Shown piece by piece: positions 20,460 to 63,442 of a stretch of DNA of 64,000 bases; positions within the stretch are counted from its first letter, which is position 1; each line of letters begins with the position of its first letter. The notes under the pieces are model-generated. The model was not told where the DNA came from and did no database searches. It saw only the letters and a list, made by a program, of their open reading frames with translations. The DNA comes from an uncultured Thermoleophilia bacterium. Lineage in GTDB: Bacteria > Actinomycetota > Thermoleophilia > UBA2241. The position numbers and the translations under genes were made by a program. The DNA lies in assembly GCA_963713475.1 (NCBI GenBank), contig CAVQLY010000005.1:77955-141954 (forward strand), read 5' to 3'.

Positions 20460-20478
20460 TCACCGGAATCCGGTGATT
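20460..20478 (-). promoter_or_regulatory. P palindrome, copy 1 (atcaccggaatccggtgat)
   Basis: Perfect 8+3+8 palindrome, about 115 nt upstream of ATG 20355. In gene orientation it reads TCACCGG-ATT-CCGGTGA followed by TGAC. Confidence 0.6.
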
Positions 20479-20962
20479 TTGGGGCGGCCCAAGCGCGAGA
20501 GACGCCCGTCTGCAGGAGTGACGTTGGGGGGGCCGGAGGCGCGCCGGCGCCGGCACAACCGGGACACGCGGCGATCGCAGGCCCTACGCGCGCTCGAAGA
20601 TCCAGGCCGCGACCCTGGTGTTGAGTTCCTCGGCGCCAGCCTCACGGCGAACACCTGCAGCCGGTTTCCACGGCCGGGGATGGCGATGAGGTCCCGCCTC
20701 TTGCACGCGGCCGTCAATGGAACCAGGCAGAAGCGGGCGCCGGAGGCCGCGTTGAGGATCGCCCCGACCGGCGCCAGCGCGCCTGCCGTCGTCGTCGCCG
20801 GGAGAGGGTCTGCCGCGCCTGCCCGACAGGTCGTGTGCGTCGGTGATGGCTGTGATGGCCGAACGGCATACACACTGGCGACGTCGCCTGAAGGACGTCG
20901 ACCATGGACTCGAAGAGCCGTACCCGCGAACAGATGCCACGCGGGGCGGCACGGCATGGCAA

Positions 20963-20994
20963 GGGGCGGGCGGCCACGAAGGGCCGCCCGCCCC
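20963..20994 (-). terminator. GC-rich stem-loop after the surface-protein pseudogene
   Basis: ggggcgggcggcc-acgaag-ggccgcccgcccc, a 13-bp perfect stem 9 nt past the stop at 21003. Confidence 0.5.
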
Positions 20995-21002
20995 ATCAGT
21001 CG

Positions 21003-23023
21003 TCAGCGCCCGAGGCTCGGATAGACCTCGATGAAGTGCCACTTGCCCACGCCGCGGTTGCCGGCCTGGTCGTAGGCGACGACGCGCCAGCACCAGGTGC
21101 CGACGCCGAGGTCGCAGGTCACGGCGGTCACGAGGCGGTGATTGGCCGGGCGAACGCCAAGCTTGTACTGCTGGATCGGTACATGGTAGCGGGTGACCGC
21201 CAGCTTGGTGGTGACCCGCTTGGACGTGGCGTCGGTGACCTTGTAGGCGCACTGCATGATGCCGCCCTGCCACGTGACCGGGCTGCCGTAGTCGTGGACC
21301 ACCGGGGCGACGCTGTCGACGCGCACCGTGCACGTCTTGGCGGTCTCGACGTTGCCCAGGGTGTCGGCGGAGCGGTAGCTGACCTTCGTCGCTCCCTGGC
21401 GCTTGATGGTCACGTGGGTACCCCTGATCCACTTCCCCGAGGCGACGCGATACTCGGTGTAGGCAACGGGAGCGCCGTCGGGGGCCGCGGTAGCGACGAA
21501 GCGCAGGCTGACCGCGTGCCGCGCCCAGCCACCGCGGGCACCCTTGACCACCGTCGTCGGAGGATTCGTGACGAGCGGGGCGGTGAAGCTCATCTCCTCA
21601 CCGTAGGCCACGGCCTCTCCCGCGGCCTTGGCGCGGAAGTAGTAGGTGGCGCCCGGCGTCAGGCCGCTGATGCGCGGCGCTGAAGGCGCCCGTCGCGGTC
21701 CTGGCCGCCGGGGTCGTCTCAGTCGTGTAGGTCCCTGAGGCGGTCCCGTACTCGAAGGAGACGTTCACGGTCGTGCTGGATCCCAGGTCCTCGAGGGTGC
21801 CGTTCAGGGTGGCCGCCTGGCTGGTGACGGACGTGGCGGCGTTGGTCGCGACCCTGGGCGGGATGTAGGAGCTGCCCTTCAGCAGCGTCAGCATCGCCCA
21901 GCAGGTGCTGCGGAGCGTCGACTCGTCCTCGTCGTAGCCGCCGCCCTCCCAGTGCCCGTCCGCGAACTGGTTGGCGACGATGACGTCGCTGAAGTCCGCG
22001 TACCAGTCGATCCCGTTGAACGTCTCGATACCCAGCGCGGTGAACCCCTTCATGGCCGCCGCCGTGGCGATGTACGACGGCTTCTGCTGCCAGGGATTCT
22101 CTGAGGCGGGATCTCCGCGCCAGCCGTAGTCATTCGAGGAGTCGTAGCCGTTGGTCTTGTCGGCCCAGTGCGTGGTCATGAAGGTCAGGGCGTCCTGCAC
22201 GCGCTGGGTGGCGACGGTGTCGCCGCAGAGGCTCTGGTTGAACAGCAGGTGTCCCGTCTTGTAGGTGTTGATCCAACCCACCGTATTCGGTGTACGCGGC
22301 GCCGCCGAACGTCGGGGCCCGGGCGTAGTCGACTGGATGAAGTCGTTCCAGGTCGACAGCCGAGTGAGCGTGTCCGCCGGAATCGTGCAGCCCATGCTGT
22401 GGGCGGCGTAGCCGAGTCCCATGCCGACCCAGCCGGTCGCCGACTGGTCGCCGTAGGTCGCTGCCCTTGTAGTAGTACCAGGCGCCGTTGGCGTCGCCGG
22501 TGGTGACCTGCGCCGAGGCGAGCCAGTCGACCGCCATCTGCGCGACCTGCTTGTACGTGAATCCGTTCAGATCTCCGCCGACCACGGTGGCGTTCGGCGT
22601 CCCCGAGCGAGCGATCGCCATCAGGCAGGGGCCCGTCTGATAGGCATTGATGCCGTTGTCGTTCCAGTAGACCCAGTGGTCCGCTGGTTCATAGACCGCC
22701 GATGCGAAGAGGAAATCGAGCCCGGCCTGGACGTTTGCGGCGTAGGCATATGACGGATCGAGCGGGGCCTTGCGGAGCTGCTCGGCGTAGTGCTCGAGCA
22801 CCGCCACCGCGAAGCCGGTATTGGCGCTGTAGTACTCGTCCGACGGCCACGCGCCGGTCGGCGCTCCGCCGGTCGACTGCAGCGGCACGAGGTAGCCGAC
22901 GCCCTTGGCGAGCGCCGCGTCGATGTCGGCTTTGCTGGCGGCCCCGGCCGACGCGGCAAACACAAGGCCTAACAGGAGCAGCACCAGTACCAGCAGGACA
23001 GGGATGTGCCGAGATGTCTTCAT
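21003..23023 (-). pseudogene. Exported prenyltransferase/squalene-oxidase-repeat-like surface protein with Fn3/Ig-like C-terminal modules, disrupted by at least 4 frameshifts
   Basis: Signal peptide at ATG 23023 (MKTSRHIPVLLVLVLLLLG). Homology continues through ORFs 22130..23095, 21598..22422 and 21003..21611 in different frames (e.g. YYYKG|ATYGDQSATGWVGMGLGY, SAA|ISGLTPGATYYFRAKA). Confidence 0.7.
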
Positions 23024-23117
23024 TGGATCTCCCCTCCAGTCGATGCCAATCCAAGACCATCGACGCGGGGTATCGGCCCTCCCCGCAGCCGTCATCCCAT
23101 TCTAGTCCCACGCTCCT

Positions 23118-23480
23118 CGTCGCGTCGAGGGTGTCGGAACGTAGTCGTTGGCCGGTGGCTGCGGGCTCGGCCGCGATGCCTGACACCCAGGGATCGGAGC
23201 AGCCGCCACTCCAGGCCGCCGACGATGATCTCGAGTCCCTCCTCATAGGCCGCCTCGGAAAACGTGGCAGGCACGCTCACCGTCGCGTCGAGGGTGTCGG
23301 GACGGATTCATCGCCGGCGGCTGCGTTCTCGACCGCGATGACTGCCGCCCACGGGGCCCGGATCAGACCGCTCCGGGCGCCAGACCGGCGCCGCCCAGGG
23401 ATCAGAGGAGCCGCCGCTCCAGGCCGCCGACGATGATCTCGAGTCCCTCCTCGTAGGCCGCCTCGGAGAGAGTGGCGGGC
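23118..23480. repeat. Tandem duplication (about 165-210 bp units) of the TetR gene 3' end and downstream flank
   Basis: cgtcgcgtcgagggtgtcgg occurs at 23118 and 23281. ccaggccgccgacgatgatctcgagtccctcctc occurs at 23211 and 23419. ORF 23092..23280 re-encodes PATFSEAAYEEGLEIIVGGLE, which is the TetR C-terminus. Confidence 0.65.
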
Positions 23481-24025
23481 ATGCGGTCGGCGAGCTCGCT
23501 CGCCTCCTGGTCGAGTTCGTCGTGCGGCGCCGTCGCGCGCCGCATCACCGCCTGCGTCTCCAGCAGGAGGAAGCCCGTCTCGAACGCGTCGAGCACGCTC
23601 CAGACCTCGACGAAGGCTTCGATCGGCGCGCCCAGCGCGACGTAGAAGTCGCGCAGACGGCGGGCGAAGTCGAGCAGCGGCGGCTCGTCGCTGGCCGCGG
23701 CGGCGACGAGCGCGAAGGCGCGCGGGTGGCGCAGCGCCATCGCGCGCAGCGAGCGGCCGACCTGCTTGGCGCCGTCGCGCCAGGTGAGGCCGGGGCTGAT
23801 CGTCAGGTCCATCTCGGCGACGAGCAGGGCCACGATGTCCGCGACCAGAGCCTCGCGCGACGGCACGTAGTGGTAGAGCGTCATCGTGCCCACACCGAGC
23901 TCGCCGGCCACCTTGCGGAGGCTGAGCGCCTCGGAGCCGTCGCGGTCGACGACGGCCAGCGCGGCCCGCGCGATCGAGTCGCGATTCAGGTGCGCGTGGC
24001 GGTTTCCCCTGGGGTCCTTTGACAT
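23402..24025 (-). CDS. TetR-family transcriptional regulator
   Basis: ORF 23402..24313. Start at ATG 24025 (MSKDPRGNRHAHLNRDSIARAALAVV). HTH region LSLRKVAGELGVGTMTLYHYV. Confidence 0.85.
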   Translation of the reverse strand: MSKDPRGNRHAHLNRDSIARAALAVVDRDGSEALSLRKVAGELGVGTMTLYHYVPSREALVADIVALLVAEMDLTISPGLTWRDGAKQVGRSLRAMALRHPRAFALVAAAASDEPPLLDFARRLRDFYVALGAPIEAFVEVWSVLDAFETGFLLLETQAVMRRATAPHDELDQEASELADRMPATLSEAAYEEGLEIIVGGLERRLL

Positions 24026-27621: not shown

Positions 27622-28344
27622 GTGGCCACACTCTCGCAGCCGACCCTTGCGCCGCCCCAGCCCGCCGCCGTGGTGGAGCAGTACGGGCGCCTCGTCTCCT
27701 CGATCTGCTGGCGCATGACGCAGGACCAGGATGCGGCGCGCGAGGCGGCGCAGGAGGTGTGGATCGCCGTCCTCGAGGGGCTGCCCGGCTTCCGCGGCGA
27801 CTCGTCCCTGTCGACCTGGATCTACACCATCGCGCGGCGCGTGGTCGGCCGCTATGCGCAGGCCCGTCGCACCCAGAACGTGCGCTTCCTCAGTGCGGCG
27901 TACGAAGCCCCGGGGGAGCTCGACCCCCCGGACACCCCCGACCTCGACCACGACCTGTGGGTGCGCGAGATGTGCGACCTGTGCATCTCCGGGATGCTCC
28001 AGTGCCTGGACCCCGACGTGCGCCTGGCCTATCTGCTGCGCGAGGTCGCCGAGCTGGACTACGACGACGTCGCCCGGGTGCTCGAGGTCCAGCCGGAGGC
28101 CGCGCGCCAGATGGTGTCGCGGGCGCGCCGTAAGCTGAACCGCTTCATGAGCGGGCACTGCGCCCTCGCCAACCCGACGGGCGCCTGCCGCTGCCGCATG
28201 CGCCGGCGGGTGCAGGACGTCGACCTGCCCGCCGAATACGCGCGCCTGCGGAAGACCAGGCACCAGGCGCGCGTCATCAAGGAATCCGAACAGGTGCTGC
28301 CGCCCAAAGATTACTGGCTGGAGTTGTCACAAGCCGTCGCCTAG
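27622..28344 (+). CDS. ECF-type sigma-70 factor with a Cys/His-containing C-terminal extension
   Basis: Sigma2 region AAQEVWIAVLEGLPGFRGDSSLSTWIYTIARR. Sigma4 region YDDVARVLEVQPEAARQMVSRARRKL. An extra 55 aa or so carries HCALANPTGACRC. Confidence 0.8.
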   Translation: MATLSQPTLAPPQPAAVVEQYGRLVSSICWRMTQDQDAAREAAQEVWIAVLEGLPGFRGDSSLSTWIYTIARRVVGRYAQARRTQNVRFLSAAYEAPGELDPPDTPDLDHDLWVREMCDLCISGMLQCLDPDVRLAYLLREVAELDYDDVARVLEVQPEAARQMVSRARRKLNRFMSGHCALANPTGACRCRMRRRVQDVDLPAEYARLRKTRHQARVIKESEQVLPPKDYWLELSQAVA

Positions 28345-30827: not shown

Positions 30828-30954
30828 ATGCCCAAAGGACGACTCCGACTCCTGGTCACGGGCAACGCGACAACGCATCGCCGAGGGACAGTGCGTCTCG
30901 TCAGGCGGCATGTCGGCAGTCCTGCCCACCGCCACGCTCACCGTCGCCCAGGAA

Positions 30955-30971
30955 TCACTGGATTCCGGTGA
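30955..30971 (+). promoter_or_regulatory. P palindrome, copy 2 (tcactggattccggtga, one mismatch)
   Basis: Sits within the conserved context gccacgctcaccgtcgcccaggaa-P-agacaacgcc, about 69 nt upstream of ATG 31032. Confidence 0.55.
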
Positions 30972-31031
30972 AGACAACGCCATCCATCGCCCGTAGCGTT
31001 ACCTGTGACATCGCGCGAGAGGGGGCACCTC

Positions 31032-33491
31032 ATGAGCGACGAACCGACTTCCGAGAACTCTCCCACTCCATCAGACGAGGGCGGCCTGGTGATGAGGTCC
31101 ACCGACCCGCCGCCGGGACAGGTCGAGAGTGCGGCGGGCGAAAGCCGCGGGCGGTGGATGCGCTGGAAGGCGAGGGCGAACAGGATCCTCCCTCGCCGTC
31201 CGTCCGAGCCCGAAGATGGCATGACCAGCCTCGTACCAGGGGTCATCCTGTTCCTGTGTCTTCTGGGCGTGGCCGTGCTGTCCATCCTCGCGATCACGCT
31301 GCCCACTCCGCTGCCGGAGAGCGCACCGGTGGACCAGTACTCCGCGGCGCGGGCCATGGCCCACATCCGGTCGCTGGCCGCACGATCCCACGCGGTCGGC
31401 ACGCCGGCGCACGCCGAGGCGGAGGCGTACCTCATCGCTCAGCTGAAGCAGCTCGGGCTCGAGACCCAGGTGCAGCGGTCGCTTGGGGTCAATCCCGAGA
31501 ACCTCAAGGACGTGACACACGTGGAGAACGTCCTCGCCCGGCTGCGTGGCTCCGAAAGCGGAGGGAAGGCCGTCCTTCTGATGGCGCACTACGACTCCGT
31601 GCCGACCGGGCCCGGGGCAGCCGATGACGCCTCGGGCTGCGCCACCCTGCTGGAGACCGCCCGTGCCCTGACGGCCGGAGGCCCGTCGCCGGCGAACGAC
31701 GTCATCTTCCTGTTCACCGATGGAGAGGAAGAGTGGGTGATGGGCTCGGAGGCCTTCGTCCGGGAGCACCCCTGGGCGAAGGACGTCGGCGTCGCACTCA
31801 ACGTGGATTGCGAGGGCCTGACCGGCGGCGCAGTCAGGATCAACGACGTCAGCCCTGACAGCGAGTGGCTGATCTCAGAGTTGACCGGCGCTGCCCCAAA
31901 CGCCTACGCCACCTCCTTCATTCCGGACTTCGACCGCGTGTTCCCGACCGGTGGAGCCAACGACTTCACCACAGTCTTCAAGACTGCCGGCATTCCAGGC
32001 TTCCTGGCCAGCTCCGATGGCGGCCCCATCTATCACGTCAGCGTGCTGGAGGATCCTGCACACGTGCACCTGGACTCCCTGCAACACCAGGGGACGTACG
32101 CCCTTGCGTTCGCTCGCCGCTTCGGGAGTCTCGATCTCACCGTTGCGCATCACGGTGCGGCCGTCTATTTCAACGCGGTCGGGAACCACCTCATGGTCGT
32201 CTACCCGACCAGCTGGGTCATTCCGCTGGCGATCCTGGCAGCCCTGGCGTGGGCCTGCGCGCTGGTGTTCGGGCTGCGCTGGGGGCAGGTCTCGGTGCGG
32301 GGCATCCTCCTGGGGGTGTTGGCCTCGCTCATCGTCATGGCAGCCATGGCCGCGATGGGCTTCCTGCTCTGGCGCCTGATAACGACCATCTATCCGCAGT
32401 ACACGAAGTGGGGCGGTGACATCTTCAACGCCCTCTACTACTGGCTCGCCTTCCTGGCGCTCGGCGTGGGGCTGGGCGCGCTGCTCCACATCGGCTTTCG
32501 CACCCGGATCCGGACGGCGGAACTGGCGCTGGGAGGTCTGTCGGTGTGGCTGGCGTTGGCCGTGATCTTCGGCATCTGGGTGCCAGGCGCCTCCTACGTC
32601 GTCACTTGGCCGTTGCTGTTCGCCGGCATCGGCGTATCGGGATGGTTCGCCCTGCGCCACCGAGGCTCCGCGACGGCCTGGAGGATCGGCTGGCTGGTGC
32701 TGTATGCAGTCCCTGCCTTCGCGCTGATGGTCCCCTTGTTCTACCTGGCGCTGTTCCCGCCGGACTTCTGGATCGTCTTGCTCTTCGCGGGTCTGCTGGT
32801 CGGGCTGCTGGCGCCGCATCTTGCGATCGTCGCACGGCCGCGCAAGTGGTGGCTCCCGGTCCTCATGGGAGTCGTCGCCGTGGCCTTCCTCGTCGCCGGG
32901 CATCTCACGTCGGCCTACACGCCCCAGCGCCCGCTCCCCGACGGCGTCACGTATGCCCTGAGCGCGGACACGGGCAAGGCCTACTGGGTCTCGTGGTACG
33001 AGCTGGATCCCTGGACGGAGCAGTTCTTCCAGGAGGCGGACGCCGGCGGTGACTGCAGTGACATCTGGCCTGAGGTCACGTCGTCCTACAAGGCGCAGGC
33101 TCCTCGGGCCGATCTCGCTGCGCCGACTGTGGAAGTACTGCCCACGACGGCTTCCGGCATCTTCCGTCTGCGAATCGTACCGGCCCCGGGGACGTGGTCG
33201 ATCTACGTCAGCACCGTGCCAAAGGCGAGACCGGTCACGTACTACGTGGACGCCAAGCCTCTGAAGTCCGACGGCTGGACCGCCTACTGGGCTCCGCCCG
33301 CGGAGGGCTACAACCTGTCCGTGAAGACACGTGGTCACTCGCTCAAGCTGCGCGTGATGGCTCAGACCCTCGGGCTGCCGACGATCCCGGACTTCACGTA
33401 CGAGGCTCGTCCGGCTTGGATCGTGCCCTCGGAGGACTACTGGGAGAACACGACCTGGGTCGCCAAGACCGTCTCCCTTGAGAAGGAGTAG
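31032..33491 (+). CDS. M28-family metallopeptidase fused to a polytopic membrane domain
   Basis: ORF 31005..33491. ATG 31032 is preceded by gagaggggg. Motifs MAHYDSVPTGPGAADDASG and FLFTDGEEEWVMGSEAF, followed by about 8 hydrophobic helices. Confidence 0.8.
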   Translation: MSDEPTSENSPTPSDEGGLVMRSTDPPPGQVESAAGESRGRWMRWKARANRILPRRPSEPEDGMTSLVPGVILFLCLLGVAVLSILAITLPTPLPESAPVDQYSAARAMAHIRSLAARSHAVGTPAHAEAEAYLIAQLKQLGLETQVQRSLGVNPENLKDVTHVENVLARLRGSESGGKAVLLMAHYDSVPTGPGAADDASGCATLLETARALTAGGPSPANDVIFLFTDGEEEWVMGSEAFVREHPWAKDVGVALNVDCEGLTGGAVRINDVSPDSEWLISELTGAAPNAYATSFIPDFDRVFPTGGANDFTTVFKTAGIPGFLASSDGGPIYHVSVLEDPAHVHLDSLQHQGTYALAFARRFGSLDLTVAHHGAAVYFNAVGNHLMVVYPTSWVIPLAILAALAWACALVFGLRWGQVSVRGILLGVLASLIVMAAMAAMGFLLWRLITTIYPQYTKWGGDIFNALYYWLAFLALGVGLGALLHIGFRTRIRTAELALGGLSVWLALAVIFGIWVPGASYVVTWPLLFAGIGVSGWFALRHRGSATAWRIGWLVLYAVPAFALMVPLFYLALFPPDFWIVLLFAGLLVGLLAPHLAIVARPRKWWLPVLMGVVAVAFLVAGHLTSAYTPQRPLPDGVTYALSADTGKAYWVSWYELDPWTEQFFQEADAGGDCSDIWPEVTSSYKAQAPRADLAAPTVEVLPTTASGIFRLRIVPAPGTWSIYVSTVPKARPVTYYVDAKPLKSDGWTAYWAPPAEGYNLSVKTRGHSLKLRVMAQTLGLPTIPDFTYEARPAWIVPSEDYWENTTWVAKTVSLEKE

Positions 33492-33702: not shown

Positions 33703-33734
33703 GAGGCCCGCCGCCCTCACGGGTAGCGGGCCTC
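33703..33734 (-). terminator. Hairpin H, copy 1 (GC-rich stem, GUGA loop in gene orientation)
   Basis: gaggcccgccgccctcacgggtagcgggcctc, 117 nt past the stop at 33851. Confidence 0.6.
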
Positions 33735-33850: not shown

Positions 33851-34444
33851 TCACTTGACCACGAAGGTCACGTCGTCCCAACTGGTCCAGTCGTGCGGAG
33901 GCACGAGCTGGTACTCCCACGGATGGGCGAACAGCGGGTCGGCCATCGTGCGCGGGAACTTGTCGCTGTAGGACACCTTGTAGGTGCCGCGCGCGAGCGG
34001 CGGCATCGGGACGAGCCAGTCCCTGCCCCACACCCCCGCTTGGCTGCCGTTGTAGGGAGCGACCATCATTTCGGGATGGTCGGTCATCCAGGCGTTCCAG
34101 AGATATGGGGCGCCCCAGTAGCTCTGGCACGTGGAGGCATCGACCGTCTTGATCACCAACGCCGGCCGCGGAGACACTCTCGTGACCTCGAGCTTGATCA
34201 ACATGCTCTCCGACTGATTGATGATGCCGCCACGAGTGATGGCGACCCAGGAGGAGCCGACCCTGACGTCGGCCCTCGCCGTCGCGGGCACGCTCTTCGC
34301 GGGCCCCCACGTCATGGTCGCATCATCCACCCAGCTGACGCTTCCGTCGGGACCCACCTGGTAGTAGAAGTCGGCCAGCGCGGGCGCCGCGCTCGCCAGG
34401 AGCAACAGCAAGGCGCAACACAGCAGGAACAGCAGCTTCGTCAT
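33851..34444 (-). CDS. Secreted Trp-rich protein of unknown function (paralog of 19669..20355)
   Basis: GGAGGG RBS. Signal peptide MTKLLFLLCCALLLLLASAAPALA. Intact 197-aa ORF. Confidence 0.7.
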   Translation of the reverse strand: MTKLLFLLCCALLLLLASAAPALADFYYQVGPDGSVSWVDDATMTWGPAKSVPATARADVRVGSSWVAITRGGIINQSESMLIKLEVTRVSPRPALVIKTVDASTCQSYWGAPYLWNAWMTDHPEMMVAPYNGSQAGVWGRDWLVPMPPLARGTYKVSYSDKFPRTMADPLFAHPWEYQLVPPHDWTSWDDVTFVVK

Positions 34445-34508
34445 GACGCCCTCCGATCTTCGGCACTCGGACTACGAGATCATCATCGAAGCGTCGGGCG
34501 GCCCCGTC

Positions 34509-34527
34509 ATCACCGGAATCCGGTGAT
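34509..34527 (-). promoter_or_regulatory. P palindrome, copy 3
   Basis: atcaccggaatccggtgat, about 74 nt upstream of ATG 34444. Confidence 0.6.
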
Positions 34528-34564
34528 TCTTGCGTGCCGATGAGCGTGACAGATCGCAGTCGAT

Positions 34565-34602: not shown

Positions 34603-34612
34603 GGCCGCAGAA

Positions 34613-35608: not shown

Positions 35609-35620
35609 AGAGGCTCGTGA

Positions 35621-37030: not shown

Positions 37031-37531
37031 TCACCGTCCCGCGATGAAGATGTCTGCGTAGCCGGTGATGTAGACCGGCCCGGCCTCGTTCAGCGCAGAG
37101 GTGAGGCCTATCGCCTTCGTCTTGTGTCCGACCAGCCACTGGTACTGCGGCGAGGCGGCCGTCACCCGCCCGTTGGCCTGGAACCTGTAGGTGCTCACGA
37201 AGTTGTAGACGCCCACCTGGTAGCCGCTGATCGTCACGGGGGCGACGGCGTCAGCGTCGTACCCGCCGACGTAGATGGTCCAGTCCTCGATGAAGTGCTG
37301 GGTCCTGCCGGTGTACCGGCTGAGTGCGCCGCCGTCCCGCTCGACGTAGGCGATGTCGCCGTTGATGGCGCCCGTGATGGGGCCGAACCAGTCGCCAATG
37401 GGGTTGATGTCAGGAGCGACCGAGAGGTCCGTATGGCACCTGAGCGGCGCGTTGCTCTTGGACTGCGCCGCAGCCGGCCCCGCCAGCGCGAGCACGAGCA
37501 GTGCCAGAGTGATGAACAGTACCTTTCTCAT
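37031..37531 (-). CDS. Secreted beta-rich protein of unknown function (166 aa)
   Basis: ORF 37031..37696. GGGGAGG RBS before ATG 37531. Signal peptide MRKVLFITLALLVLALAGPAAA. Confidence 0.7.
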   Translation of the reverse strand: MRKVLFITLALLVLALAGPAAAQSKSNAPLRCHTDLSVAPDINPIGDWFGPITGAINGDIAYVERDGGALSRYTGRTQHFIEDWTIYVGGYDADAVAPVTISGYQVGVYNFVSTYRFQANGRVTAASPQYQWLVGHKTKAIGLTSALNEAGPVYITGYADIFIAGR

Positions 37532-37596
37532 TGCGCTACCTCCCCAGTGTCGTGACCTGCGATGCATCAGTGTGCGGCGTTCGCGGCGCACTGTCA

Positions 37597-37613
37597 TCAC
37601 CGGAATCCGGTGA
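37597..37613 (-). promoter_or_regulatory. P palindrome, copy 4
   Basis: tcaccggaatccggtga, about 76 nt upstream of ATG 37531. Confidence 0.6.
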
Positions 37614-37650
37614 TTTCTGGGTGCCGGCGAACGTGACAGATGCTGTCGGT

Positions 37651-37994: not shown

Positions 37995-38288
37995 TCAGGG
38001 CAACTGGCTCACAAGGCCGGCGAACTCCTCAGGCGTGAAGGCGCGGAGCGTCTGAGTGGTGACATAGCCCTGAGCGGCCAGCGCCATCGCCGTCACGGCT
38101 GCGACCTCGTCGCTGGGACCTTCTGCCACCGCCACGTAGTCGTAGGCGCCCATCGTGGCTCTGAAGCAGACCATCTTCCCGCCCGCGGCCTCGAGCGCCT
38201 TGATGCCCGCGTCGATCCGCGCCGGCGCGCCCTTGAGGTCGGCAAGTCCCTTCGGGGTCATGTTGAAGAGAAGGACGAACTGCGCCAT
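37995..38288 (-). CDS. GYD-domain protein (97 aa)
   Basis: MAQFVLLFNMTPKGLADLKGAPARIDAGIKALEAAGGKMVCFRATMGAYDYVAVAEGP, with the characteristic G-x-YD core. Confidence 0.8.
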   Translation of the reverse strand: MAQFVLLFNMTPKGLADLKGAPARIDAGIKALEAAGGKMVCFRATMGAYDYVAVAEGPSDEVAAVTAMALAAQGYVTTQTLRAFTPEEFAGLVSQLP

Positions 38289-38376
38289 GGTGCACCTCCT
38301 GTGCCGTGGCGTCGCATCCTCTGTGCGGCGCCGTCACCAACCACCTCTACGGTAGGTGTGGCGAGCGCCGCCGTCT

Positions 38377-38393
38377 TCACCGGAATCCGGTGA
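38377..38393 (-). promoter_or_regulatory. P palindrome, copy 5
   Basis: tcaccggaatccggtga, about 96 nt upstream of ATG 38288. The upstream context gctcgccgtcgcccaagaa is conserved. Confidence 0.6.
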
Positions 38394-38441
38394 TTCTTGG
38401 GCGACGGCGAGCATCGGCGGCGACTTCCCCCGGCCAGCAAA

Positions 38442-52658: not shown

Positions 52659-53489
52659 ATGGCTACGAAACAGCAACTGCTTGATGATCTGGAGGCGCGC
52701 TGCGCCGCGCTCCGTGCGCAGGGCGGGGGCAAGCTGCCGCCGGAGCGCGCACTCGCGGAGGAGCTCGGGGCTTCTCGCTCCACCGTCCGCCGAGCACTTT
52801 CGGAGCTCGCGGCGATGGGCGCGGTCACCATCCGGCGCGGCCGCGCCGGCGGCGCGGTGGTTGAGGGCACGCCCCGCACTGGGCGCGAGCGGCGCGAAGA
52901 GCGACTCCTCGCCGTCTGGAGCACGGATGGCGGCAAGGTCACCCGCAGCCTCAACCACATCAGCGGGATTCCCCAGACCCTGGCCGGAGAGGGGCTGGCT
53001 GTGGGTATTCGCGTCCTCTCGCTGGCGCTCGAAGCGCCAGACCCCAAGATCGCAGAGCGGCTGGGCGTCGACCCGGTCGAACCGGTGGTCGCGCTGACCC
53101 GCATCCGCGTCGCCAATGGGCAAGCCCTCTCCCTCGAGCGCATGTACCTCAGCTATGGCCGCTTCCCCACCCTCGTGGAGGAGGGCCTCGGCGGCGCGAC
53201 GTCCATGTACCTGCTGCTGCGCGAGCGCTACGGCGTATCAGTCGCGTATATTGAGGAGGAGATCGAGATCGCGGGGGCCACGCCGCGGGAAGCTGCACTG
53301 CTCACGATCGAGACGGGCGCCCCCGTCCTGGTGCTTCACAGGCTGGCTTCGGACACGGACGGCGTCCCCATCGAGTGCTCCTTCGACCTCTTTCGCGGCG
53401 ACCGGACGCGCCTGACCGTGCGGACCGCCGACGCGAGCGCCGCGGCCGCAGGCAACGCGCTAGGGGTGGCGCTCAAGCCAAAGCGATAG
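52659..53489 (+). CDS. GntR/HutC-family transcriptional regulator (wHTH + UTRA domain)
   Basis: KLPPERALAEELGASRSTVRRALSELAAMGAVTIRRGRAGGAVV, followed by a UTRA-like C-terminus. Intact 276-aa ORF. Confidence 0.85.
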   Translation: MATKQQLLDDLEARCAALRAQGGGKLPPERALAEELGASRSTVRRALSELAAMGAVTIRRGRAGGAVVEGTPRTGRERREERLLAVWSTDGGKVTRSLNHISGIPQTLAGEGLAVGIRVLSLALEAPDPKIAERLGVDPVEPVVALTRIRVANGQALSLERMYLSYGRFPTLVEEGLGGATSMYLLLRERYGVSVAYIEEEIEIAGATPREAALLTIETGAPVLVLHRLASDTDGVPIECSFDLFRGDRTRLTVRTADASAAAAGNALGVALKPKR

Positions 53490-56325: not shown

Positions 56326-56357
56326 GAGGCTCGCCACCCGTGAGGGCAGCGGGCCTC
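56326..56357 (+). terminator. Hairpin H, copy 9
   Basis: gaggctcgccacccgtgagggcagcgggcctc, 30 nt past the stop at 56296. Confidence 0.6.
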
Positions 56358-56367
56358 TTCAGCGCTC

Positions 56368-56406
56368 GGCCACCGTTTCGGGGACTTCGCCCACACGCAC
56401 AGAAGC
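56368..56406 (+). repeat. Box B, copy 6
   Basis: ggccaccgtttcggggacttcgcccacacgcacagaagc, starting 10 nt after hairpin H copy 9. Confidence 0.6.
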
Positions 56407-56660
56407 GCGACTGGAGGAGGGGCAAGAACCGCGGCGGCCGCCCTGGGAGGCGGCCGGGGGGCGCCAGGCAATGGAGCTGCCGGCGCGGTGGTCTGGTTCT
56501 GACGGTTCCTGAAATCAACCATAGCACCGGGACCGGAACGGTGCGCCGTTGCATGGCGGCCCGCCGGCAGTCTTCCGCTGGAAGTCGGCTACGACGGGCG
56601 CGTCGTCATTCTCGGCCGCGCTCGCGGCACGGGACAAGGGGCTGAGGGGTCCGGCAGGTT

Positions 56661-56773
56661 GACGACGAAGAACGGCCCCGGCGCCGTCCTGCGACCCGGG
56701 GCCGTCTGCCTCCGGCGGAGCGGGGACAGAACAAGGGGACCTACGCCCCTCCTAGCGCGTTCCGCCGACTGCA
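56661..56773 (+). repeat. Element E, copy 1 (about 110 nt, two predicted hairpins)
   Basis: ggccccg-N15-cggggcc, then ggcggagcggggacagaacaaggggacctacgcccctcctagcgcgttccgccgactgc. Confidence 0.5.
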
Positions 56774-57007
56774 CCCACGTTGTCGGTGCGTTCCGGCATC
56801 CCTTTAGCCTCGAGAGTAGTCAGTCCGGTAGACGCGACGCCAGCGCCAGATGCGGGACCGGGCGCCGAAGCCGCCTGGCATCGCCTGACGCAGGACGACC
56901 CCGCCGCGAAACGTCCAACTAGGCGCTAGACGAGTCAAACGTCAGCGTGCAGGGTCGTGAGGGTAGCCTAGACGATGCTGGAGCCACCGACCAGGGTCGT
57001 TGCCGAT

Positions 57008-57114
57008 GGACGCAGAAGCGGCCCCGAAGCCGAAGCCCGGGGCCGCCCGTCACCGGCGAAGCGGGGCAGAACGAGGGGACCTGTGCCCCCTCCTAGCGCC
57101 TTCCGCCGGCTGCG
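57008..57114 (+). repeat. Element E, copy 2
   Basis: ggccccg-N10-cggggcc, then ggcgaagcggggcagaacgaggggacctgtgccccctcctagcgccttccgccggctgc. Confidence 0.5.
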
Positions 57115-57377
57115 CCTCTGTTCTCAGCCATGGGCCATCCCCTTGGCGAGCCTGGCTTGGGGGGATCAGGATGTTGTTAGCAAAACGGAGAGGCAGCCCT
57201 TCGTCAAGCGCGGGCCCGCGCGTGGGGGCCGCCTACGGGTCTAACCGGCACCGGTGGATTGTGGCCCTGCCGACGACCGCTCCGACAGCCGATGCTCTGC
57301 GTATCATCAGCAGTCAAACGTTTCGCACTAGGGATGCAGAACGGTCCGCCGCCAGTGAGCTGCCTGGGTGACGATGA

Positions 57378-57409
57378 GAGGCTCGCCGCCCGTGAGGGCA
57401 GCGGGCCTC
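57378..57409 (+). terminator. Hairpin H, copy 10
   Basis: gaggctcgccgcccgtgagggcagcgggcctc, closing a gene-less stretch of about 1 kb. Confidence 0.6.
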
Positions 57410-57418
57410 TCCATGACC

Positions 57419-57458
57419 GGCCACCGTTCTAGGGACCTCGCCCACACGCACAGAACGC
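57419..57458 (+). repeat. Box B, copy 7
   Basis: ggccaccgttctagggacctcgcccacacgcacagaacgc, starting 9 nt after hairpin H copy 10. Confidence 0.6.
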
Positions 57459-57493
57459 GACCTCCCTCTGCCACGCTCGCCGTCGCCCAAGAA

Positions 57494-57510
57494 TCACCGG
57501 ATTCCGGTGA
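57494..57510 (+). promoter_or_regulatory. P palindrome, copy 6
   Basis: Context gccacgctcgccgtcgcccaagaa-tcaccggattccggtga-tgacaacgcc, about 106 nt upstream of ATG 57609. Confidence 0.6.
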
Positions 57511-57608
57511 TGACAACGCCACTCACCACTCCCATTGTGGAGGTGGGAAGGAGGCGAGAGATAGCAGGGACAGTGCATCGTGAAGGTTGAATCGAAGAGA
57601 AGCTGGTC

Positions 57609-57883
57609 ATGGTCTTCATCACGTTGTGCAGAGTGAGGTCCAGGCATCTCGAAGGGGCACACCGCCCGCCGCCTCGACTACGGTATCCCGAGGGGATGCG
57701 GGTGTTGGGCGAGTGGTGGCTGCAGACTCCGGACCCTGAGGTGATTCTGATTACAGAAGCGAACAGCGCGGCCCCGATGCTGGCTGCGCGTGCGGCTTGG
57801 GATGATGTCTTCGACATCACGATACTCCCGGCCGTCAGGCCGAAGAAGGGATGGCGATCGCCCGTCAGGCGATGGCGGGGTAG
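57609..57883 (+). pseudogene. DUF3303-like small protein with one frameshift near 57840
   Basis: MVFITLCRVRSRHLEGA...YPEGMRVLGEWWLQTPDPEVILITEANSAAPMLAARAAWDDVFDITILP. The natural-looking end EEGMAIARQAMAG* is in another frame (TAG 57881). Confidence 0.55.
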
Positions 57884-57916
57884 CGGACGGGTCTGCAGCC
57901 GCGGGCGATGCAGCAA

Positions 57917-57948
57917 GAGGCCCGCGACCCGTGAGGGCAGCGGGCCTC
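57917..57948 (+). terminator. Hairpin H, copy 11
   Basis: gaggcccgcgacccgtgagggcagcgggcctc, 34 nt past TAG 57881. Confidence 0.6.
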
Positions 57949-57980
57949 TGTTAATGCCGAAATGTCTAGCCTATGGCGAA

Positions 57981-58122
57981 GGCTCAGACGGCCCCCGTCC
58001 TTGCCAAGAATCGTGCCAACATGCCAATCCGAACGATGGGGATTGTGGCAGTGTATGGGGCTGTGTGGAGGCTGGAGGAGCACCGCAGGCACGGTCAGGG
58101 TTGATGAAAATCGTGTCGCGGC
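57981..58122 (+). repeat. Leader block R4, copy a (about 140 bp)
   Basis: ggctcag..ccttgccaagaatcgtgcc..gattgtggcagtgtatggggctgtgtggaggctggaggagcaccgcaggcacggtcaggg..atcgtgtcgcggc. Aligns to 61979..62118. Confidence 0.6.
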
Positions 58123-58223
58123 CTGTGAACGGCTGCCAGAAGGGGTCCGAAGCCAAGACTGGGAGGGGGCAGCGCATCGGGCACACCGTTTCTTCAGCCA
58201 GAACGAAGCGCGGGGGGTCTGAA

Positions 58224-61200
58224 ATGGTACGCAAGGGCCTGTTCATGGTCGTCTTCGCGACTGCCACGTTGTGGTTATTGTGGCCGTCATCTCGCCGACG
58301 GCGATGGCTGCGGCGGGGTGGGTGACGACGCAGCTCACCGACAACGACTACAGCAACAGAGTTCCCGGAGTCTCGGGTGACCGGGTGGTGTGGATGGCGG
58401 GGGAGTTACAGGCGGGGGTCAAGACAGTAATACCTGGAGGTCTACACGTGGAAGGAGGGCGACTCTGGCCCCACTCAGATCACCCACAACCTCACCCGGA
58501 TTACGCCGCAGGTCTCCGGCGATCGCGTCGTCTGGGTCGGATCCATGGCTCCTACAACGCGACGGCGCCTCTACACGTGGGAATCGGGCGACGCCGCGCA
58601 ACACTGATCGTCGACGGCCTGGGGCAGACCCCGAGTACGCAATCTCAGGCGATCGGGTGGCGTGGGTAGACATTCCGGACTATCCGGGAGGTTACAGCGC
58701 CGCGGAGGTCTACACTGGAAGGTGGCGGCTGCGCCACGCGGGTCACCGACAACGCCGTTCCGGATGGCTACGTGCAGGTTTCCGGCGACGGCTGGTGTGG
58801 GCCGCAGGGGACATGCCTGGACCAGGGAGCCCAAAGGCGCCGGGGAGATGAAGACCTGGAAGGTGGACGAAGCTGCACGCGGGTGACGACAATGACCATG
58901 ACGACTGGTGCACGATGGTCTCCGGCGATCGGCTGGCGTGGCTCGGGAGCGCGGATGCCTCCTCGATCGAAGACGTCTTCACTGGAAGGTGGGCGACGCA
59001 GCGCCACACGGGTCACTCGGGCCGTGAGTGCGAGCGATCTCCGGGTCTCCGGCGACGTTCGCCTGGCGGGCGCTATAGGGGGGCCGATAGATGACAACGA
59101 GGTCTTCACTTGGCAGGTCGGCGACCGGCCCGACAAGGTTGACCGACGACGACGGTAACGACGGATTCGTGGGGCTCTCCGGCAATCGACTAGTGTGGGC
59201 CTCGTGGCCGCATGGTAGTTCTGAGCCTTGCGAGATCTACACATGGGGGCCGGTGACGTCGTACCGACCAGCTCACCGGCATCAGCAGGACTGGGCGCGA
59301 CGGTTTCGGGAGAACGGGTTGTCTGGAGCTACCTGTACAGTCACAAGCCAGATTCGTACTGCCGTACCGCTCCCGGCGGCGTGGGCAATTTGGTCTCCCC
59401 GACGCACCTGACGAGGCGACTGGTACGCGGACTCTGGCCCCGCTTCGCTTGGGATGCAGCAGCGATGCAATCTCCGGTGTAGACGGCTACTCGTACATGC
59501 TCGACAGGACCGGGGACCGTGCAGACACGGAGGTAGATCCCACGGACGCGGCAGTGCTCGGCTTCGCACCGTGGACCGACTACCAACCGGTCGATATGCG
59601 ACCGTCGCCACAGGCGACGTCAACAACGACGGCAAGGCGGACATCGTGACGGCGAACGGCGGCGACTCCACCGTCAGCGTACTGCTCGGAAGGGATGACG
59701 GCAGTTTCCAAGCGAAGGACGATACGAACTGGAGTTGCGCGTGCAGTAGCGTTGGCGAGTTCAACGGCGACGGCAAGCAGGACGTGGCGACGAGGAACAC
59801 CGATGGGCACGGTCTCGGGTCGGTAGCGTGCTGCTGGGCAACGGCGACGGCACTTCAGGGCAAGGTCGACTATCCGACGGGTGGCAGCGGAACCGACGTG
59901 GCCGTGGGCGACTTCAACGGCGACGGCAAGCAGGATCTGGCCGCGACGTCGTCGCAACGCGAACAAGGTCGGTGTGAGGCTGGGCTACGGCGACGGCAGC
60001 TTCAGGGCCAGGGCCGACTGGTCGGCACAGTGAGAGTCACGTTGGTCGTAGGTGATTTCAACGGCGACGGCAAGCATGCCCTGGTGGTGGCGAACGGCCA
60101 GGAGCATTGGACGCGAGCGTGCTGCTCGGTGACGGGGGCTGGCAGCTTCGCCGGCAAGATCGACTTCACGACGGGTGACGGCCCTACCGAGTCGCCGTGG
60201 GTGACTTCAACGGCGACGGCAAGCAGGACCTGGTGACGGCGAACGTTTCGATTCGGTGGCGACAAGGTCGGCGTGCTGCTTGGGGAAGGCGACGGCAGCT
60301 TCGCCGGACCTATCGACTATGCGACCGGCTAGCTCGCTCGGTCGGTCGCCGTGGGTGACTTCAACGGCGACGGCAAGCAGGACCTGGTGACGGCAACGTC
60401 GACGGCGGCGACGTCAGCGTGCTCGGGGATGCGGCGACGGCACCTTCGCCGGGGCAGCGGCCTTCAGCGTGGGGTCTGGGGCGTCCTCGCTCGCCGTCGG
60501 CGACTTCAACTCGGACGGCCGGCCTGACCTAGCTGCGGCCACAATGCATTGCTCTACGGCGACACGGTCAGCGTCCTCATGAACGCCGCCGCGGGCACGG
60601 CCACCATTTCAGTGACTTTGCCGATGGTGTCTGGTACTTCCACGTGAGGGCTGTGAACCGAGCGGGCTACGGTGGCCCGACCAGCACGCGAGAGGTACGC
60701 ATCGACACGGCGCACAATACGTTGCCGGGCAGCAACGTGACGGTCGACCTTGAGTCGGACATCTGCGTGATGTTCGACAGCGTCAGCGCGCCCGGCACGA
60801 CGACGGTCACGACGAGCCCCGTCAGTCCCGGTCCCGCCCCCGGCGAGTTGCTGGTGCTTGGCGGCCTCTACTTCGCGTTCTCGACCACGGCTGCATACCA
60901 GGGGCCCATCAGCATCTGCCTGCCCTATGATATTACCGGTCTCAGCGATGCCGAGCAGCAGGGCCTCGTCCTCCTACATTACGACGACGGTGTCTGGGTC
61001 AATGTGACGGACTCCGTGGACATGGTGAGACACATGGTCTGCGGCTCGGTCCAGCATCTCTTGGTTCGCGGTCGCCTATCCCAACCAGCCGCCCGCGGTT
61101 GGCGCCCTCAGCGCCCCGGTCGACCCCGTCAAGGTGGACACGCCCGTCGTGGCCTCGGCCGGCTTCACCGACCCCGGCATCCTCGACACCCACACGGCGC

Positions 61201-61828
61201 TCTGGGCCTGGGGGGACGAGACGTCACCCGGCAGCGTCACGGAGGTCAACGGCTGCGGCACGGTCTCGGGGACGCACACCTACCTCAAACCGGGCGTCTA
61301 CACCGTGACGCTGACTGTGACCGACGATGACGGCGCCTCGAGCCAGCGCGTCTACGGGTACGTCGTGATCTACGACCCGAGCGCCGGGTTCGTCACCGGC
61401 GGCGGGTGGATCCTGTCGCCTGCCGGGGCGTACGTGCCCGACCCGGGCGCTGACCGGGACGGCCAGCTTCGGCTTCGTCACCAAGTACCTGAAGGGTGCC
61501 ACGGTGCCGACCGGCGAGACCGAGTTCGTGTTCCAGGCCGCGGGCACATGAACTTCCAGTCGACCAGCTACCAGTGGCTGGTTGTCTCCGGAAAGGACAA
61601 GGCCCAGTACAAGGGCAGCGGCACGATCAATGGTTCGGCGGCAACTACGGCTTCATGCTGACCGCGCTCGACGGACAGGTCTCTGGCGGCGGCAATCTCG
61701 ACAAGCTGCGCATCAAGATCTGGGACAAGACCAGCGGTGAGGTCATCTACGACAACAAGCCTGGTGCCGCGGACACTGCCGACCCGACCACGACCCTCGG
61801 CGGCGGCAGCATCGTCGTCCACAATTAG
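58224..61828 (+). pseudogene. Giant exported surface protein (SGDRVVW-type repeats, 7 FG-GAP/VCBS-like repeats, PKD-like domain), broken by at least 10 frame changes and an in-frame TAG
   Basis: ATG 58224 gives signal peptide MVRKGLFMVVFATATL. Motifs VSGDRVVW, ISGDRVAW and TVSGERVVW occur at 58.3-59.4 kb. VGDFNGDGKQDLV occurs 7 times at 59.6-60.5 kb. YFHVRAVNRAGYGG and THTYLKPGVYTVTLTVTDDDGAS follow. The end GGGSIVVHN* is at 61828. The pieces lie in 12 or more ORF-track fragments. A TAG occurs at about 60330. Confidence 0.65.
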
Positions 61829-61978
61829 GAGTACGGACAATCCTGAGCCTGAGGCACGGAGGCGGCCGGCCCCTCCGTGCCTCTTCGCCCTGGCTCTGCT
61901 ACCCGCGAGCAGCTTGTTGCTGCCGACCTTGGCCTGCTGCGTGTTGGCGGCGACCCTGTCCGAGCTGTTGGGGATATC

Positions 61979-62118
61979 GGCTCAGCCCCCTTCCTTGCCA
62001 AGAATCTTGCCGACATGCCCATACGAGACAGTGGAGATTGTGGCACTGTATGGGACTGTGTGGAGGCTGGAGGAGCACCGCAGGCACGGTCAGGGTCGAC
62101 TGAAGATCGTGTCGCAGC
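61979..62118 (+). repeat. Leader block R4, copy b
   Basis: cggctcag..ccttgccaagaatcttgcc..gattgtggcactgtatgggactgtgtggaggctggaggagcaccgcaggcacggtcaggg..atcgtgtcgcagc. Confidence 0.6.
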
Positions 62119-62379
62119 GATTTGGACCCGACACAGGTCTGAAAATCGTGTCGCCGCCCGGTCGGCACAGGTCACGCGAACCTGTGTGGCAAACGAAAGG
62201 CGCTCCTGTGCTGCTGGTCTTCACCCTCTGCCGACGTCGAGGCGACTCACTGGGGACCTAGTAGCGCCCGCGCAGCTCTTCACGAGGTGGAGCGCCATGC
62301 GCCCCGGTCCCCTGGCGGCCCCCGAAGAAGACGGCGTGCGCTTGGCAGAAGCCGCCTCTAGCCTCTGCTCGCGGTCTGC

Positions 62380-62398
62380 ACACGATACACAATCGTGT
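62380..62398 (+). promoter_or_regulatory. 7-5-7 palindrome acacgat-acaca-atcgtgt
   Basis: Second copy of the 55534..55552 palindrome, 25 nt upstream of P copy 7. Confidence 0.4.
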
Positions 62399-62422
62399 CC
62401 GCGCCCCGACGTCCCCTGAGAA

Positions 62423-62439
62423 TCACCGGATTCCGGTGA
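62423..62439 (+). promoter_or_regulatory. P palindrome, copy 7
   Basis: gagaa-tcaccggattccggtga-agacaacccc, about 150 nt upstream of ATG 62582 and about 320 nt upstream of ATG 62753. Confidence 0.55.
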
Positions 62440-62581
62440 AGACAACCCCGTTCTGCGCCTCCATGATGACGATGGGAGGCATTGATCCGCCGGACGCACC
62501 ACCGCGGCCACCAGACACCGGGGGGGAGCCGCTGGTGAGGCCGGACCTCTGGGAGCCAAGGGGCCAACCACGGGAGGGAGC

Positions 62582-62700
62582 CATGAAGGAGCTTCTGCTC
62601 CTCATCGGACGAGCACGACTGCCGACGCGCTGTCCAACCAGCTGGACTCGGGCTCGCTCCTCTGCCCGGCCCGCTGGTGGATTCCTCGGGGGTCCCGCAG
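62582..62700 (+). pseudogene. Possible remnant of a paralog of the 63825 gene
   Basis: Strong RBS gggaggg before MKELLLLIG. In a second frame STTADALSNQLDSGS resembles ATTTADQIAQLQKAV of the 63825 product. Very short and degenerate. Confidence 0.3.
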
Positions 62701-62752
62701 GTTCAAGTCGGCGGTGCGCTGAAGCGCCGCCTGAGATGGAGGTGTATGCCCG

Positions 62753-63274
62753 ATGAAAGCCAAGAAACCGATCCTTCTTGTCGTGCTCCTTGCGTTCGTG
62801 CTCGTGCTGGCGTTCGCGCCGGCGGCCTCGCGAAATCGCAGCCCGTCGCCGCATCGGGCTCATGGACCTGGGTGGGCGGCGAGGGCGGGACGAACAGAGT
62901 GCTCGTCCAGCGGACACCTGTTCATCAAGGGCTACGAGATCGGCCAGTGGTCCGGCACGTTCACGGCCACCAACACGTACGAGAACTACGTGGGGACGGT
63001 CTGGTTCGACCCCGCCAACCCCGATACTTGGTACTCCCTGCGGGCGAAGCTCTGGATCCACTTCGCGGATGCCACCGTCGACATGGGCGGCGGTGTGCTC
63101 CTTCATGGTGACATGACCATGCTCGTCGTCTTTGATGGCTACGACTGGGTCCAGGGAGCCACCTGGAAGATCCACAACGGGACGCGTGGCCTGAAGCATC
63201 TCGGAGGCGCGGGCACCCTTGTCGGGACTACGACGGGGATGGACTACGCCGGCACCATCTGGACTCAGAAATAG
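62753..63274 (+). pseudogene. Secreted protein of unknown function, probably 2 compensating frameshifts near the N-terminus
   Basis: GGAGG RBS. Signal peptide MKAKKPILLVVLLAFVLVLAFAPAA. Codons 27-55 are Arg/Ser/Pro-rich, while the alternative frame reads AKSQPVAASGSWTWVGGEGGTNRVLV. The remainder (GHLFIKGYEIGQWSGTF...GTIWTQK) is clean. Confidence 0.55.
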
Positions 63275-63345
63275 CGACGGCGGCCAGGAGCGCGAATCGA
63301 AGAACGGAGGTCCTTCGGGGTCTCCGCTATCCTGCGCCCCGCCAA

Positions 63346-63377
63346 GAGGCCCGCCACCCGTGAGGGCAGCGGGCCTC
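63346..63377 (+). terminator. Hairpin H, copy 12
   Basis: gaggcccgccacccgtgagggcagcgggcctc, 72 nt past the stop at 63274. Confidence 0.6.
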
Positions 63378-63425
63378 TTCTGCGGGCTGTAGAAGTCGCC
63401 GCTGACGCTCGCTGTCGCACAAGAA

Positions 63426-63442
63426 TCACCGGATTCCGGTGA
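63426..63442 (+). promoter_or_regulatory. P palindrome, copy 8
   Basis: gctcgctgtcgcacaagaa-tcaccggattccggtga-agacaacgcc, about 390 nt upstream of ATG 63825. Confidence 0.55.

Follow-up and report, generated by a model that had tools for sequence, protein, structure and literature searches.

A 64-kb window of DNA from an uncultured Thermoleophilia bacterium (64,000 nucleotides, the whole stretch analysed here; G+C ~68%) contains eight copies of a 17-bp palindrome, TCACCGGATTCCGGTGA (TCACCGG-ATT-CCGGTGA), all of them intergenic and each pointing at the gene downstream of it. A pattern search of the window at up to two mismatches returned exactly these eight sites (Table 1). Seven are perfect and the copy at 30955 has a single mismatch, as the original prediction from the sequence had it; the left arm of this copy reads TCACTGG. 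Seven of the predicted coordinates also agree, while the site given as 34509 should read 34510. There were no matches in 100 dinucleotide-preserving shuffles. Relaxing the window search to three mismatches added no further sites and revealed no degenerate copies, so that the palindrome is either near-perfect or absent. Read in the direction of the next gene, each of the eight copies has the form (A/G)AA-palindrome-WGAC with T as the central base, in keeping with the orientation-locked ATT centre and WGAC flank described before; no copy in the window lies inside a gene or in the opposite orientation. The palindrome centre lies 113, 69, 74, 74 and 97 nt before the start codon in five units with short leaders, ~107 nt before a DUF3303-like open reading frame (ORF), 322 nt before the start at 62.4 kb and 364 or 391 nt before the alternative starts at 63.4 kb; these remeasured distances match the earlier ones. 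A conserved stretch of ~20 nt had also been proposed upstream of the palindrome. This block, gccacgctcgccgtcgccc, is present in a subset of the copies, and its conservation is moderate (0.3-0.7 bits per position at -29..-12 from the centre).

Pfam and signal-peptide annotation bore out the predicted products of the downstream genes, which are mostly small exported proteins together with a GYD-domain protein, a DUF3303-like protein and a membrane M28 peptidase. As the DUF3303-like ORF reads through a terminator-like hairpin at 57928-57944, it is probably disrupted. The nearest relatives among the loci fetched for comparison (designated by L numbers) are metagenome-assembled genomes (MAGs) of Thermoleophilia, with at most 84% DNA identity in one cassette. 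The mismatch in front of the M28 peptidase gene is also present in L153 and L155, and in the more distant relative L145 the promoter of this gene carries a perfect palindrome behind an entirely different upstream flank. Module 5 recurs in front of an identical GYD gene in five other genomic contexts, and a near-identical copy of module 8 is found in a Thermoleophilia MAG (L072).

The spacing of the bases that follow the palindrome was analysed on a larger set of instances, drawn from an exact 17-mer scan of GTDB genomes without any constraint on the flanks, from a metagenome scan for the palindrome plus WGAC, and from loci found via their proteins. Removal of near-duplicates left 47 Thermoleophilia-type instances from the window, Thermoleophilia MAGs and metagenomes. 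Numbered from the palindrome centre, their position profile consists of GAA at -11..-9, the invariant palindrome at -8..+8, W-G-A-C-R at +9..+13, 17 low-information bases, and C-A-N-N-N-T at +31..+36. The hexamer A-W-G-A-C-R at +8..+13, whose first base is the last base of the palindrome, matches the -35 consensus TTGACA at 4-5 of 6 positions; its GAC (+10..+12) is present in 8/8 window copies and in 11/12 Thermoleophilia GTDB hits, neither of which sets was constrained by pattern. Further downstream, an A occupies +32 in 36/47 instances and a T occupies +36 in 38/47. The combination ANNNT begins at +32 in 35 instances and at +33 in another eight (43/47 together), giving a spacer of 17-18 bp, and at other offsets between +14 and +63 it occurs in a mean of 0.8 of the 47 (binomial P ~1e-51). 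Position -12 of the promoter is mostly C (34/47), not T. A strict scan for the TTGACA/TATAAT consensus found nothing at the sites, its requirement of at least 4/6 matches to TATAAT being ill-suited to a genome of 68% G+C, and the position-specific count was used instead.

It is thus well supported that the two elements form a sigma-70-type promoter with an actinobacterial-style -10, whose start is predicted at ~+43 from the centre. On this numbering the palindrome spans ~-51 to -35 and is centred at ~-43, and it is likewise well supported that it is a DNA site abutting the promoter upstream of the predicted start, so that it would lie outside the mRNA. Its orientation lock is explained by its being joined to a directional promoter through the -35 box. 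The original prediction had offered either an operator overlapping a promoter or an RNA hairpin in the 5' untranslated region; the operator is the alternative that stood, with WGAC as part of the -35 box and a -10-like element at the expected distance. Two other readings of the flanks, as an extracytoplasmic function (ECF)-type promoter (GGAAC...CGTC) or as a sigma-54 promoter, were rejected by eye because no conserved partner element is present at the required spacing.

Several variations on this layout were seen. In three metagenome contigs (L127, L132 and L150) the palindrome (PAL) is the core of a perfect ~43-bp palindrome, aggtgaatggtca-PAL-tgaccattcacct. The -35 and -10-like elements to either side of it point to a promoter that may be symmetric and bidirectional. 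A TCACCGG-like heptamer occurs at -25 in 7/47 instances at up to one mismatch and in 15/47 at up to two, a count that we did not rely on; in degenerate form, TCrCCGy, it stands 17 bp upstream of the left arm in these 7-15 instances (-25..-19; for example, window 30938-30944). A further (C)TCACC lies within the -35/-10 spacer (+16..+25; for example, window 57520-57525) in several Thermoleophilia copies and in most copies from other Actinomycetota. Such TCACC-like half-sites may be auxiliary contacts for an oligomeric regulator.

Table 1. Palindrome-promoter modules, the genes that they face and riboswitch aptamers in the 64-kb window.
Feature	Coordinates	Strand	Description
Module 1	20431..20479	-	AAA 20477-20479; palindrome 20460-20476; -35 ATGACA 20455-20460; -10-like GACAGT 20431-20436; spacer 18 bp; predicted start ~20425
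Module 1 gene	19669..20355	-	228-aa signal-peptide protein, no Pfam match
Module 2	30952..30999	+	GAA; palindrome 30955-30971 (TCACTGG); -35 AAGACA 30971-30976; -10 TAGCGT 30994-30999; predicted start ~31006
Module 2 gene	31032..33491	+	Membrane M28 peptidase, 819 aa (PF04389, 1.4e-38)
Module 3	34482..34529	-	GAA; palindrome 34510-34526; -35 ATGACG 34505-34510; -10 GATGAT 34482-34487; predicted start ~34475
Module 3 gene	33851..34444	-	197-aa signal-peptide protein, no Pfam match
Module 4	37569..37616	-	AAA; palindrome 37597-37613; -35 ATGACA 37592-37597; -10 CACACT 37569-37574; predicted start ~37562
Module 4 gene	37031..37531	-	166-aa signal-peptide protein, no Pfam match
Module 5	38349..38396	-	GAA; palindrome 38377-38393; -35 AAGACG 38372-38377; -10 TACCGT 38349-38354; predicted start ~38342
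Module 5 gene	37995..38288	-	GYD-domain protein, 97 aa (PF08734, 2.8e-22)
Module 6	57491..57538	+	GAA; palindrome 57494-57510; -35 ATGACA 57510-57515; -10 CATTGT 57533-57538; predicted start ~57545
Module 6 ORF	57609..58325	+	Partial DUF3303 match (3.4e-05)
Module 7	62420..62467	+	GAA; palindrome 62423-62439; -35 AAGACA 62439-62444; -10 CATGAT 62462-62467; predicted start ~62474
Module 7 aptamer	62466..62555	+	c-di-GMP-II-GAG type; 40.8 bits (gathering score 40, reached)
Module 7 gene	62753..63274	+	173-aa signal-peptide protein, no Pfam match
Module 8	63423..63470	+	GAA; palindrome 63426-63442; -35 AAGACA 63442-63447; -10 CAAGAT 63465-63470; predicted start ~63477
Module 8 aptamer	63470..63557	+	c-di-GMP-II-GCG/GAG-like (RF03170); 33.6 bits, E 0.042 (below the gathering score of 47.9)
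Module 8 gene	63798..64000	+	Signal-peptide protein, cut by the window end; alternative start 63825
Aptamer without a palindrome upstream	35089-35178	-	c-di-GMP-II-GAG; 60.6 bits (gathering score 40); strongest in the window

The leaders that follow the palindromes at 62423 and 63426 match the Rfam models of the cyclic di-GMP (c-di-GMP)-II-GAG and -GCG riboswitch variants (RF03169, RF03170), for which, to our knowledge, the ligand has not been established. As these aptamers come directly after the palindromes, the long leaders at 62.4 and 63.4 kb are riboswitch leaders, and the variant here forms a separate RNA module downstream of the palindrome. The conserved core of the module 7 aptamer, GGGAGGC, starts at the predicted transcription start itself. 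In related loci, seven further aptamers directly after palindromes score 50-63 bits, above the gathering score, and the leaders behind palindromes in L046, L075, L119, L124, L133 and L154 match the same models. When eleven aptamer leaders were aligned, ten of which follow a palindrome, the P1 helix and the GGGAGGC core were seen to start 5-8 nt past the -10, at +41..+46, and units without an aptamer have a ribosome-binding site from ~+50; these positions lend indirect support to a start at ~+43. The leader of module 1 retains a degenerate remnant of the 5' half of the riboswitch. Since the strongest aptamer in the window has no palindrome upstream, and palindrome-less aptamers are found in related loci as well (for example, at L158 2583, L154 10623, L039 5365 and L075 6382), riboswitch and palindrome are independent modules that are sometimes combined. 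Elsewhere in the window, a weak match to the cspA thermoregulator at 17872-18216 (- strand; 29.8 bits against a gathering score of 78) lies mostly over the coding sequence of a cold-shock protein and is probably not a real one.

Compared pairwise, the eight window copies have a mean identity of 0.99 over the palindrome, 0.80 over WGACR, 0.45 over the spacer, 0.43 over the -10 and ~0.30 elsewhere. Loci that had been found via their proteins and not via the motif have palindromes that are perfect or carry one mismatch, and none with two or three, so every base of the 17-mer appears to be constrained. An invariant palindrome between spacers and flanks that have diverged to an identity of 0.40-0.45 argues for selection through sequence-specific recognition rather than for a recently spread repeat, and the copies do not behave as repetitive extragenic palindromes or miniature inverted-repeat transposable elements: they are always co-oriented with the gene, always joined to the -35 and -10, and set in diverged flanks. 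The unconstrained GTDB scan also recovered the same 17-mer at the same promoter position in Streptomyces, Asanoa/Micromonospora, Streptosporangiaceae, Frankiales and other Actinomycetota. There, the intergenic 17-mer is followed by NGACC and by a GAACCT or GATCAT -10 at +32..+37, the promoters face SDR, MBL-fold, SnoaL-like or quinone-oxidoreductase genes, and the central base takes either orientation relative to the driven gene. Such base-for-base conservation across distant actinobacterial classes is unusual and suggests very tight protein-DNA recognition. The 17-mer was also seen in a second conserved context, ...ggtgg-PAL-gaccgtgggcgagcggctggcc..atcgt (L003, L021, L033, L035, L044, L056, L058, L061, L063, L069, L071, L091 and L112), which in Mycobacterium and other Actinomycetota looks like the coding sequence of a conserved gene.

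One regulator family recurs near the palindrome sites, and no other does. Using tblastn, an LAL homologue was found in 30 of 152 loci ascertained by the motif, including three of the Thermoleophilia type; its Pfam domains, AAA_16, TPR_MalT and GerE, correspond to the MalT-like LAL architecture (STAND ATPase, TPR and LuxR/GerE helix-turn-helix). The nearest end of the aligned LAL gene is 27-91 bp from a palindrome in 15 loci, and in several loci (L010, L113 and L015) palindromes lie at both ends of the LAL gene and drive the neighbouring genes. In other Actinomycetota the palindrome is found 30-45 nt before the LAL start codon, and in the Thermoleophilia-type loci L029, L103 and L116 a related LAL gene lies 0.3-1.8 kb from a palindrome. 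A perfect copy is located 75 bp past the LAL stop codon in L160, a one-mismatch copy lies 334 bp upstream of the LAL gene in L165 and points away from it, and one further LAL orthologue, of seven looked up, has a copy 7 kb away. L154, which is closely related to the window organism and carries the same array, has a frameshifted LAL gene 4.3 kb from a palindrome. The regulators of the window that had been put forward as candidate binders, TetR (23402-24025), GntR/HutC (52659-53489) and an ECF sigma factor (27622-28344), are annotated as such, and nothing links any of them to the motif. Comparison of the recognition helices of LAL helix-turn-helix domains by eye was not discriminating and was not used as evidence. 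Two palindrome promoters drive regulator genes, one for an ECF sigma factor (Sigma70_r2, r4_2; L152, palindrome centre 1734, - strand) and one for a PucR-type HTH_30 protein (L130, palindrome centre 2352, - strand), which hints at a regulatory cascade.

We therefore favour, with moderate confidence, an operator over an RNA hairpin: the palindrome would be a class-II-type site, not described before, for a LuxR-type regulator, and this regulator is most likely a MalT-like LAL protein. On this reading, a LuxR/GerE-type helix-turn-helix protein would bind as a dimer to the 17-bp palindrome, a DNA site joined directly to the upstream end of a sigma-70-type promoter. This regulator, most likely the MalT-like LAL protein, would be encoded elsewhere in the genome, and from its class-II position it would probably activate transcription through contacts with sigma region 4 and the C-terminal domain of the alpha subunit. 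Its putative regulon would consist of hairpin-terminated single-gene units, mostly encoding small exported proteins, together with M28 peptidases and GYD, DUF3303 and SnoaL-like proteins. A second layer of control would come, in some units, from a c-di-GMP-II-GAG-type riboswitch with which the transcript begins. That an LAL protein binds the palindrome is what we infer from the co-localisation of the two. Activation is the norm for the LAL family and is accordingly the mode that we would expect here, although the fairly good -35 box leaves room for repression.

Several observations weigh against this reading. Co-localisation with LAL genes does not distinguish a binder from a regulated target; of the seven LAL orthologues looked up, four lack a palindrome within 10 kb, and the 64-kb window encodes neither an LAL nor any other GerE protein. 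A fairly good -35 (4-5/6) is more typical of repressed than of activator-dependent promoters. It is unusual for the operator of a regulon to be conserved almost perfectly at all 17 positions, and a symmetric dimer does not explain why the central base is orientation-locked in Thermoleophilia.

Alternatively, the same site and promoter geometry could serve a different binder, such as an orphan response regulator akin to BldM or a repressor of the TetR or Xre type, that represses by occluding the -35 and the UP region, the LAL genes being among its targets. With a -35 (TGACA/AGACA) and a 17-bp spacer that are both near-optimal the promoter may be active unaided, a palindrome 30-45 nt before the LAL start codon in other Actinomycetota could control the LAL gene itself, and the four LAL orthologues with no palindrome nearby also speak for this alternative. 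The outer TCAC/GTGA bases are also those of the BldM box, the spacing of which is off by 1 bp. Palindromes that flank LAL genes on both sides and drive their neighbours are the usual signature of a regulator with local targets, however, and no second regulator family recurs near the sites. We regard a different binder as plausible but less probable than control by an LAL protein.

In a further alternative the palindrome has no dedicated regulator. A conserved terminator-like hairpin, GCCCGCCACCCGTGAGGGCAGCGGGCC, marks the boundaries of the units; the window has 12 copies of it, always co-oriented with the gene arrays (33707-39362, - strand; 56337-63373, + strand). Thirteen contigs, with at least five different neighbourhoods among them, encode an identical GYD protein, and DNA homology between these neighbourhoods starts and stops at the hairpins, for example at window 38476->37698 in L155 and L156; in L157 a 280-bp hairpin-to-hairpin unit lies on the opposite side of the GYD unit. 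Breakpoints at hairpins and a GYD gene in varied surroundings suggest cassette-like shuffling. In L154, the cassette array opens with a palindrome that is directly preceded by two tRNA genes (7533-7762), and a tRNA-Sec gene and a tRNA gene lie near palindrome sites in L039 and L117. The palindrome could belong to a promoter cassette that was carried along with the hairpin-bounded units as these spread by duplication or recombination, perhaps as a recombination or mobilisation site, and that is conserved by descent or gene conversion. The movement of units between genomic contexts, the upstream block and central base common to Thermoleophilia copies, and the all-or-none character of the copies are consistent with such a history, but the spacer and flanks have drifted to near background while all 17 bases are fixed, distant classes keep the 17-mer at this place in the promoter between flanks that are unrelated, and the homology breaks at the terminator-like hairpin, not at the palindrome. 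Spread without a regulator is therefore improbable. Least probable is a palindrome transcribed as a hairpin at the 5' end of the RNA, AUCACCGG-AUU-CCGGUGA, that stabilises the mRNA or binds a protein: its 7-bp stem, 3-nt loop, predicted stability (-10.6 kcal/mol) and locked orientation would suit such a role, yet the conserved -35 and -10 lie at and after it, aptamers and ribosome-binding sites begin at the predicted start ~43 nt past its centre, its invariant sequence offers neither compensatory changes nor covariation, an Rfam search found no family covering any palindrome at E up to 1, and in other Actinomycetota the central base faces either way.

For Thermoleophilia, an uncultured and poorly known class, the palindrome thereby defines how a set of promoters is built and points to a candidate master regulon of secreted proteins that are themselves uncharacterised. 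As the operator lies beside the candidate regulator in culturable Streptomyces, for example in Streptomyces sp. NBC_01622 and S. hokutonensis R1-NS-10 (L078 and L027), the pair is directly testable there, and the result would be transferable to Thermoleophilia. The analysis also places the orphan c-di-GMP-II-GAG variant in a transcriptional context, with its aptamer at the predicted +1 and before genes for small exported proteins, which may help the search for its ligand. A more speculative and rather doubtful extension is that palindrome-promoter, optional orphan c-di-GMP-II-GAG riboswitch, a single small secreted-protein gene and hairpin form self-contained cassettes, which would be shuffled between genomic sites and strains by recombination at the hairpins and which one STAND/LuxR master regulator would turn on all together; Thermoleophilia would then possess a promoter-carrying, integron-like pool of secreted-protein genes.

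Among known systems, the closest in geometry are the lux box and other class II sites (LuxR, TraR and the proximal DosR/DevR site), where a dyad of 16-20 bp centred at ~-42/-43 overlaps the -35 by a base or so and is bound by a GerE-type dimer. The window site, a 17-bp dyad centred at ~-43 and overlapping the -35 by one base, has the same layout; unlike the lux box, it is unrelated in sequence, odd-centred, essentially invariant and attached to a good -35. In domain architecture the candidate regulator resembles the LAL proteins, such as Escherichia coli MalT and Streptomyces PikD and SCO6993, which act in or close to the -35 region. The MalT box is an asymmetric decamer, GGGGAKGAGG, that occurs in repeats, whereas the window site is a 17-bp palindrome of unrelated sequence. 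SCO6993 binds short palindromes, that in its own promoter included (PMC9628970). None of the reported LAL sites resembles the 17-mer, however, and the regulon here appears to be large and dispersed and not cluster-situated.

The nearest likeness in sequence is the Group I box of Streptomyces venezuelae, 5'-TCACcCgnncGgGTGA-3', which is bound by the GerE-type regulator BldM (PMC4125116). Both are palindromes with outer TCAC...GTGA and a G/C-rich inner part, and as the BldM box is bound by a NarL/GerE-type homodimer, GerE-type dimers are known to read half-sites of this kind. The BldM box is nevertheless 16 bp long with 8 bases between TCAC and GTGA, compared with 17 bp and 9 bases here, its inner bases differ, and BldM itself is an orphan response regulator and not a STAND protein; no BldM homologue came up here, where none was looked for. 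A text search of the searchable paper library for the 15-mer core of the motif gave no match. Judged from sequence, the palindrome and its genes would represent a new operator and regulon of a known general type. What sets them apart from the systems above is the base-for-base conservation across classes, the density of a small-secreted-protein regulon in Thermoleophilia (8 sites in 64 kb) and the frequent pairing with an orphan riboswitch variant.

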